Below are positions 42,010-42,261 of a stretch of 64,000 nucleotides of DNA, piece after piece. Below the pieces are notes generated by a model. That model was not told the origin of the DNA. It searched no databases and saw only the letters and a program-made list of their open reading frames with translations. This DNA comes from Eledone cirrhosa. Taxonomy: Eukaryota. The position numbers and the translations under genes were made by a program. The stretch covers positions 95,480,001 to 95,544,000 of the forward strand of contig OZ024741.1 of assembly GCA_964016885.1 (NCBI GenBank). The letters are read 5' to 3'. Each line of letters opens with the position of its first letter. Position 1 is the first letter of the stretch.

Positions 42010-42259
42010 ATTTCATCATATACACCTCGAAGATGCAAAGTCTCATGTACAACATAAAGCAAGACATGTCCTCTTCAAACAAAATACATAGAAAATGCAT
42101 AACTCCTTCCCCGACACGCTGGTAAACAAACGAACTGGATAGATCGATGACCACCAGGCATATGTCACCGATCTGTCCAGCTCGCTTGTCCACCAGCACA
42201 TCAGGAAAAAAATCATACATCTTCCATATATTTTGTCTGAAGAGGACATGTTTTGCTTT

Positions 42260-42261
<2 letters not shown>
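42010..42261 (-). mobile_element. A-to-G-mutated hammerhead plus 98-bp-arm fold-back palindrome (probable Penelope-like remnant)
   Basis: Arms 42054-42151 and 42164-42261. Minus strand ATTTTGT-(T/C)TGAAGA-GGACATGT...GCATCTTC-GAGG-TGTATA-TG-ATGAAAT restores to a hammerhead if the G's are read as A. Confidence 0.7.

Follow-up and report, generated by a model that had tools for sequence, protein, structure and literature searches.

An island of repeat DNA in Eledone cirrhosa as a probable reverse-transcribed copy of an ADAR-hyperedited RNA

A 662-base island of repeat DNA on contig C2 of Eledone cirrhosa (positions 41944-42605 of the 64,000-nucleotide stretch analysed here, referred to below as the window) is, with a probability that we place at roughly 0.8, a reverse-transcribed copy of a read-through RNA that had been hyperedited by ADAR, the G alleles being known from the assembly sequence alone. 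This origin is likely because 34-37 A-to-G changes, all on one strand, are confined to the predicted RNA duplexes of an identified donor.

The island lies between a 200-N assembly gap (41744-41943), which covers its 3' junction and any target duplication there, and a 1.4-kb (TA)n array (42606-43975) at its 5' junction, and is described here in the sense of the minus strand. It begins with an inverted arm of a tRNA-type SINE (42520-42605, plus strand), which forms the 5' end of the unit and carries six A-to-G changes on the minus strand (42590, 42563, 42562, 42560, 42559 and 42558). This arm is followed by a 5'-truncated sense copy of the SINE with an (ATG)n tail. The first part of this copy (42405-42519, minus strand; 7 of 27 adenosines changed to G) is partly paired with the inverted arm, and its 3' body and tail (42262-42404, minus strand) lie outside the long duplexes. 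Next come two copies of a probable Penelope-like repeat, family X, which form a 98-bp hairpin: an inverted partial copy as the 5' arm (42164-42261, plus strand; 5 of 35 adenosines changed) and a direct copy as the 3' arm (42054-42151, minus strand; 7 of 27). The direct copy contains the 5' strand of stem I and the CUGANGA box of a minimal type-I hammerhead motif (42009-42086, minus strand) and runs into the 3' part of X (41951-42053, minus strand), where 12 of 43 adenosines are changed (9 by family majority). The hammerhead motif is degenerate in the window, with C3U, A14G, A15.1G and a G at position 17 (C3 at 42078, G12 at 42028, A14 at 42026, A15.1 at 42025, U16.1 at 42018 and H17 at 42017). 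The last 7 nt (41944-41950, minus strand) are the start of a second SINE, cut by the gap. Both constituents are abundant: an unedited 28-mer of the SINE occurs 32,411 times in the genome, and X has 740 candidates, of which 40 were scored.

In the surveyed genome (3.0 Gb in 1,796 contigs), the island has a single twin, a locus on contig C25 (L002) that contains the whole arrangement with 90% identity. The junction between the SINE tail and X is present at exactly two places in the 3.0 Gb when up to two mismatches are allowed, these being the window and C25. Comparison with 36 kb of C25 showed no common flanks; the match is confined to 41944-42605, and the (TA)n array at the 5' junction is absent from the flank of the twin. 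The C25 composite is longer than the island: it runs on for approximately 230 nt upstream of the inverted SINE arm, its left X arm extends upstream (L002 1021-1125 and beyond) and is split by the SINE, which is flanked by a target duplication of 8 nt, and its second SINE is complete. The island starts approximately 230 nt inside this donor composite, and its missing end may also have been lost later at the TA array.

Window and twin differ by 57 substitutions. In the sense of the minus strand, A>G accounts for 40 of these, G>A for 6, C>T for 3 and T>C for 1, and the other 7 are transversions, including one at the boundary. A preliminary description of this DNA, made from the letters of the window, had suggested that the sites be polarised with other genomic copies. 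Using the family majority in a pile-up of 169 alignments from 54 loci, 34 of the 40 A-to-G differences were found to be window-derived, as against a single T>C (binomial p=4e-9). The pile-up contained no window-derived A>C or A>T in the island, and an APOBEC-type excess of G-to-A on the sense strand was not found (5 G>A and 34 A>G window-derived). At 42356, 42339 and 42321 the difference is a G-to-A change in the twin. At 42036, 42028 and 42014 the twin has A in both its direct copy and its far arm, and from this agreement these three may also be edits; at 42014 most family copies have G (23 G, 4 A), and there is a change only relative to the donor lineage. Ordinary drift, CpG decay or G-to-A changes in the twin have next to no probability as a general explanation: they do account for 7 of the 19 A.C mismatches between the hairpin arms, which predate the copy, and for 3-6 of the 40 differences, but they are refuted for 34 sites at which the family majority is A, most of these sites being near-invariant. 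Other copies, moreover, show A>G and T>C in similar numbers (26:42 and 63:60). Since the derived changes other than A>G are similar in number in the window (12) and the twin (8-11), or approximately 1.5%, both copies appear to have aged alike. With the calibration given in PMC13282606, in which a distance of 0.065 is taken as 18 My, this divergence corresponds to a rough age of 4-5 My for the copy.

The one-strand pattern had been recognized in the preliminary description from the hairpin of X. The two arms (42054-42151 and 42164-42261) do differ at 21 of 98 positions, with 19 A.C and 2 G.T mismatches on the plus strand, and the predicted fold of 41990-42270 has an energy of -154.3 kcal/mol for the minus strand vs -94.6 for the plus strand. 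In the second hairpin of the island (42448-42604), 13 of 15 mismatches are A.C. Palindromes elsewhere in the window that had been named as controls lack the bias, as claimed, with A.C in 0 of 12 mismatches at 47249, 0 of 4 at 36953 and 1 of 7 at 58996. The letters of the hammerhead motif were also given correctly, and comparison with the twin bears out their polarity: A14 (42026), A15.1 (42025), 42023, H17 (42017) and 42014 are all G in the window, while A13, which follows a G, is intact. Of the 19 A.C mismatches, only 12 are new A-to-G changes; seven (42078, 42087, 42094, 42109, 42125, 42134 and 42147, with their partners) were already present in the unedited twin. The proposal of a single edited retro-copy fits the one unit, one polarity and ADAR-type context observed, but the unit extends beyond the claimed end at 42010 and reaches the gap at 41944.

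The distribution of the changes follows the structure predicted for the donor composite, which folds into three long duplexes of approximately 100-115 bp. Taken 5' to 3' on the minus strand, the duplex segments have A>G changes at 6/29, 7/27, 5/35, 7/27 and 12/43 adenosines, and the loop at 0/2. Altogether, changes affect 37 of 161 duplex adenosines, whereas window-derived changes affect 0 of 46 adenosines of the SINE body (p=4e-5; p=1.6e-4 when 34 changes are counted); the 3 A>G differences among these 46 sites are all twin-derived. When the changes are placed on the donor fold, 37 of 40 are in pairs (p=2e-4), and when they are placed on a fold of the window sequence only, 31 of 40 are (p=0.07). 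One paired stretch of 44 nt (42097-42054) is without any change. The most informative segment is the hammerhead half (41951-42053), which pairs only with a far arm (L002 1021-1125) that is present in the twin and absent from the window; yet 9-12 of its 43 adenosines are changed, significantly more than in the SINE body (p=9e-4 to 6e-5). Because this half carries changes although its partner exists only in the donor, they would have been introduced into a molecule that covered the donor locus, rather than into the DNA now in the window. Within the predicted folds, we regard this missing-arm pattern as the strongest sign for that conclusion.

The neighbours of the changed adenosines are also those expected of ADAR. 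Among duplex adenosines, changes were found after U at 17/46, after A at 17/49, after C at 3/34 and after G at 0/32 (avoidance of G, p=1e-4); a 5' U or A is thus not universal, as 3 of the 37 changed adenosines follow C. A preference for a 3' G was not found among the duplex adenosines (G 7/28, A 15/49, C 5/25 and U 10/59); the 3' G preference of ADAR is weak in most species. A 5' U or A is reported as favoured and G as disfavoured in all metazoans studied in PMC9989829, and for molluscs PMC6651903 describes TA, CA and AA as strong targets and GA as a weak one.

Changes of this kind might also arise at the DNA level, through error-prone synthesis of the polymerase eta type or through DNA deamination while a hairpin-rich template was copied. 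Polymerase eta produces A-to-G changes at WA sites and often makes A>C and A>T as well. The context observed here (34/95 adenosines changed at WA vs 3/66 at other sites), together with the strand bias, fits its signature, and ADAR itself can edit DNA within RNA/DNA hybrids (a finding cited in PMC12925331). What makes a DNA-level process improbable is the purity of the changes, with no window-derived A>C or A>T in the island and only 2 vs 63 A>G in three other hypermutated copies described below; the rate (approximately 23% of duplex adenosines) and the confinement to duplexes in two donor-daughter pairs would also be left unexplained.

The second of these pairs was found in a search for further edited copies. 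An A-to-G flag was raised by 0 of 32 other X alignments and 0 of 62 other SINE alignments, hairpin loci and the twin included. With the edited SINE hairpin as query, 33 alignments in 18 loci were obtained; a flag was raised by L132 in both arms, by L129 and, weakly, by L139. A motif requiring three changes had two matches, the window and a copy on contig C10. A motif requiring two changes had eight, and five of these eight SINE copies are hypermutated elsewhere in their sequence, whereas the background of 18 A>G in 2177 A sites leads to an expectation of 0.7 further changes per copy. Besides the window, the five comprise the C10 copy, with 11 further changes on the same strand, and copies on contig C1 at 42 Mb, on C1 at 205 Mb and on C919, in which A>G makes up 11/17, 29/35 and 23/27 of the other differences, respectively. 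Three candidates (L149, L151 and L152) were rejected, with A>G at only 0/4, 2/5 and 4/15 of their other differences. Because the double- and triple-site motifs select SINE-sense edits, the strand of the changes in these copies is not independent evidence. In the C919 copy, 1 of 18 adenosines is changed after G (p=0.017). None of the four hypermutated copies other than the island has an N within 10 kb.

The C10 copy has its own twin on contig C23. The two have 755 nt in common, which begin at a TA run, include a flank of 260 nt and stop at the SINE tail, the end of the unit. Of the 77 adenosines in the hairpin, 13 are changed between C10 and C23, one of them on the side of the twin, and outside the hairpin 0 of 156 are.

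Some features of these loci are recorded here as separate observations. The flank carried with the C10/C23 hairpin has a second hammerhead-type motif on the opposite strand (L154 1166-1425 and L155 1173-1430), which reads CUGAUGA in C10 and has an altered box in C23. The copy at 205.48 Mb of C1 (L163 4957-5244 and 6320-6644) is a SINE that has 31 A>G as well as a long run of G, and 1.1 kb downstream there is an unedited inverted SINE, which may be a chance neighbour or the result of one-arm conversion by edited cDNA of the same locus. The copy at 42.17 Mb (L162 4980-5195) is a hypermutated SINE fragment between apparent, oppositely oriented Penelope-type coding remnants identified by eye. The C919 copy (L165 2203-2526) is a whole SINE with 25-26 A>G; the 10 kb around it contain no inverted partner.

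It might be argued that the pattern consists of one-strand A-to-G miscalls at the end of a contig, where coverage was thin and hairpins and TA arrays are present. A gap edge and TA arrays adjoin the island, clustered errors of one type are known in reference sequences (G-to-A in Sanger traces, as reported in PMC2873906), nanopore reads are described as failing at inverted duplicates (PMC7229812) and G homopolymer runs are present in two of the other hypermutated copies. The nanopore fault, however, affects the stretch past the junction, whereas in the island both arms are changed on one strand; this DNA contains no partner for the hammerhead half, the SINE body between the hairpins is clean and the C10 copy lies in gap-free, ordinary sequence. 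Perfect 200-bp hairpins within TA arrays show 0-1 mismatches, which is a weak control as the loci were chosen as best matches. Interruptions of the TA arrays recur in exact duplications of 80 and 180 nt, longer than in 40 of 40 shuffles. A sequencing or assembly artefact thus seems an improbable source of the pattern.

Other observations, the lack of a 3' G preference and the unchanged paired stretch of 44 nt among them, count against an origin from edited RNA. The island begins its contig beside a gap, among kilobase TA arrays, and the interruptions in the adjacent arrays have the same polarity as the changes in the island (82 to 2 and 176 to 9), which would also be expected from a local strand-specific process. 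Most other long TA arrays seen are polarised too, in either direction. These interruptions were not counted as edits, as they recur in duplicated blocks and the arrays are absent from the donor. Public contigs (X1-X4), too sparse to weigh for or against this origin, do not cover the edited X stretches 41944-42058 and 42174-42219; their single-copy depth is approximately 7, with holes in ordinary sequence. Calibration of these contigs on the C25 flank gave 268 nt with one difference, as for the same or a close species, and no listed piece extends across the junctions of the twin. No public sequencing run contains half of the words of the island, and no RNA holder is listed.

Judging from its sequence, X is probably a Penelope-like terminal repeat. 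This assignment is based on its intact hammerhead cores, on recurrent head-to-head pairs (L003, L007 and L011) and on a 327-aa ORF that follows X in L142, whose atlas neighbours (0.96-0.98) include two clusters with GIY-YIG on 35% and 63% of their members; the ORF had no Pfam match and no PDB match, and no reverse transcriptase was seen. The minimal hammerhead core (CUGANGA, GAAA, an NUH site, G10.1-C11.1 and a palindromic stem III) is intact in 19 of 22 other X copies and in neither the window copy nor the twin. All 22 of these copies have C at position C3, where the window and its twin have U; at G12, the twin has A in its direct copy as well as in its far arm. In the stems, 96% of cells pair, compared with 37-63% when the alignment is slid, with 0 double-sided changes; no Rfam hammerhead was found in the Rfam matches, including the 150 of 303 matches listed. 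As described in PMC4209133 and PMC8557442, the minimal hammerheads of Penelope-like pLTRs resemble X in their type-I core, G10.1-C11.1, long stem II and palindromic stem III, and in the inverted 5'-truncated copy and (TA)n insertion; in contrast to theirs, the core of the window/twin lineage is degenerate.

The preliminary description had concluded that editing destroyed the ribozyme core and that ADAR may in this way restrict hammerhead retroelements. A14, A15.1 and H17 are indeed edited in a family in which most copies keep an intact core, and changes at these positions would block hammerhead cleavage. The C3U change, however, is already present in the unedited twin, which means that editing did not kill a working ribozyme, and the same holds for the A at G12. 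The fold predicted for the donor RNA places the 3' half of the hammerhead in a duplex of approximately 100 bp with an antisense copy and not in a ribozyme structure, so that on this model the ribozyme was likely both impaired and sequestered before editing. The edited RNA was, moreover, copied into DNA despite its edited hammerhead, leaving restriction unsupported. Metazoan Penelope minimal hammerheads are reported to cleave weakly and only as dimers (PMC4209133), and inhibition of human L1 by ADAR1 is described as apparently independent of editing (PMC12925331). Restriction by ADAR is accordingly a very unlikely account of the island.

The sequence of events that we propose for an edited read-through RNA starts from the arrangement on C25, where a head-to-head pair of the probable Penelope-like repeat is interrupted by the SINE with its inverted 5' arm (and 8-nt target duplication) and followed by a second SINE. 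A read-through transcript of this locus would have folded into the three duplexes, and ADAR would have deaminated about a quarter of their adenosines. A LINE reverse transcriptase may then have primed at the tail of the last SINE and proceeded upstream over the composite, with each inosine being read as G, and the 5'-truncated copy would have been inserted in the (TA)n array on C2; the Penelope machinery is an alternative carrier for this step. The event would have taken place in the germline, and each copy would since have drifted by approximately 8-12 ordinary substitutions. The hammerhead, with C3 already lost, would have been a passenger.

The last 40 or so bases of the SINE match the end of a LINE remnant in L165 (one direct case among 85 tail motifs examined), whose motifs we take to be of the RTE type. 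Priming at the SINE tail is favoured by the fact that this SINE is the last element of both donor composites. LINE/SINE transduction carries flanking sequence, and the island resembles it in that upstream sequence moved together with a SINE that has a LINE-like tail, but differs in that its cargo is edited. Both composites also contain a hammerhead-bearing repeat and sit at (TA)n, which is reported to be the target of some Penelope clades (PMC8557442), so that the Penelope machinery may also have been the carrier.

There are precedents in the ADAR-type clusters of retroviral DNA and in the footprints left by APOBEC in LTR copies of vertebrates. For avian retroviruses, A-to-G hypermutation of the ADAR type is reported in the U3 of Rous-associated virus and in an inverted repeat of avian leukosis virus (Felder 1994 and Hajjar and Linial 1995, as cited in PMC12925331). 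The island is similar in having A-to-G clusters in an inverted repeat fixed in DNA via reverse transcription; it differs in its template, a SINE/Penelope composite of the host that is non-coding, in being found in a genome assembly and in having an identified, unedited donor. APOBEC editing of vertebrate LTR elements (PMC4866542) likewise leaves a deaminase footprint in retrotransposed copies, polarised there both pairwise and by consensus, but consists of G-to-A on cDNA that is not tied to duplexes, in contrast to the duplex-bound A-to-G in the non-LTR material described here. That screen reports none in 19 invertebrates, and its text does not mention ADAR. A-to-I hyperediting of repeat dsRNA in metazoans, including Octopus bimaculoides (PMC9989829), has the same clustering, inverted repeats and preference for 5' U or A over G, but is seen there as RNA against matching DNA, whereas here the pattern is in the DNA sequence itself. 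A literature search that was thin on subscription papers found no report of ADAR-edited non-LTR copies in an animal genome. New here are two traced donor-daughter pairs and the missing-arm test.

RNA editing is regarded as non-heritable, and a DNA copy with an unedited source would be a route from edited RNA to inherited DNA, in a host lineage known for heavy editing. It is likely that traceable pairs such as these record in chromosomes the full editing pattern of single germline RNA molecules, that ADAR and retrotransposition together act as a recurrent, structure-guided germline mutator and that the daughters preserve how a transcript was folded millions of years ago, even where they no longer have the partner sequence. 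If so, ADAR activity in the germline, its site preference and the structure of the RNA could be read from them molecule by molecule. Whether editing hinders retrotransposition would become testable by counting edited copies, here on the order of 5 among the 32,411 SINE copies at one motif (a lower bound), against the editing frequency of donor RNAs. Edited copies would also mimic old age or subfamilies in repeat dating and may absorb edited RNA reads in mapping.

Several other repeats were noted in the window. At 24745-24945 there is a young hammerhead-bearing repeat (L065-L089) whose 40 best of 603 candidates are 99-100% identical and often form inverted pairs; it was rejected as a second edited insert, being identical to its family. 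At 25 loci with TA arrays near repeats of this type, G interruptions lie on the hammerhead-sense strand in 19 cases and clearly on the opposite one in 0; they may stem from edited (UA)n RNA or belong to the element as an internal repeat. Many chromosomes have tandem arrays, spaced at 483 nt, of a 366-nt unit (25315-25680 in the window) that is 98-99% identical between its occurrences. The SINE 3' fragment at 37962-38150 has a 31-nt internal deletion and runs into a 3.6-kb TA array; without the private alleles of the second SINE of the twin, it was not accepted as the far end of the copy. The minus strand at 44060-45000 holds what we take, from motifs seen by eye, to be a remnant of a Tc1/mariner transposase.
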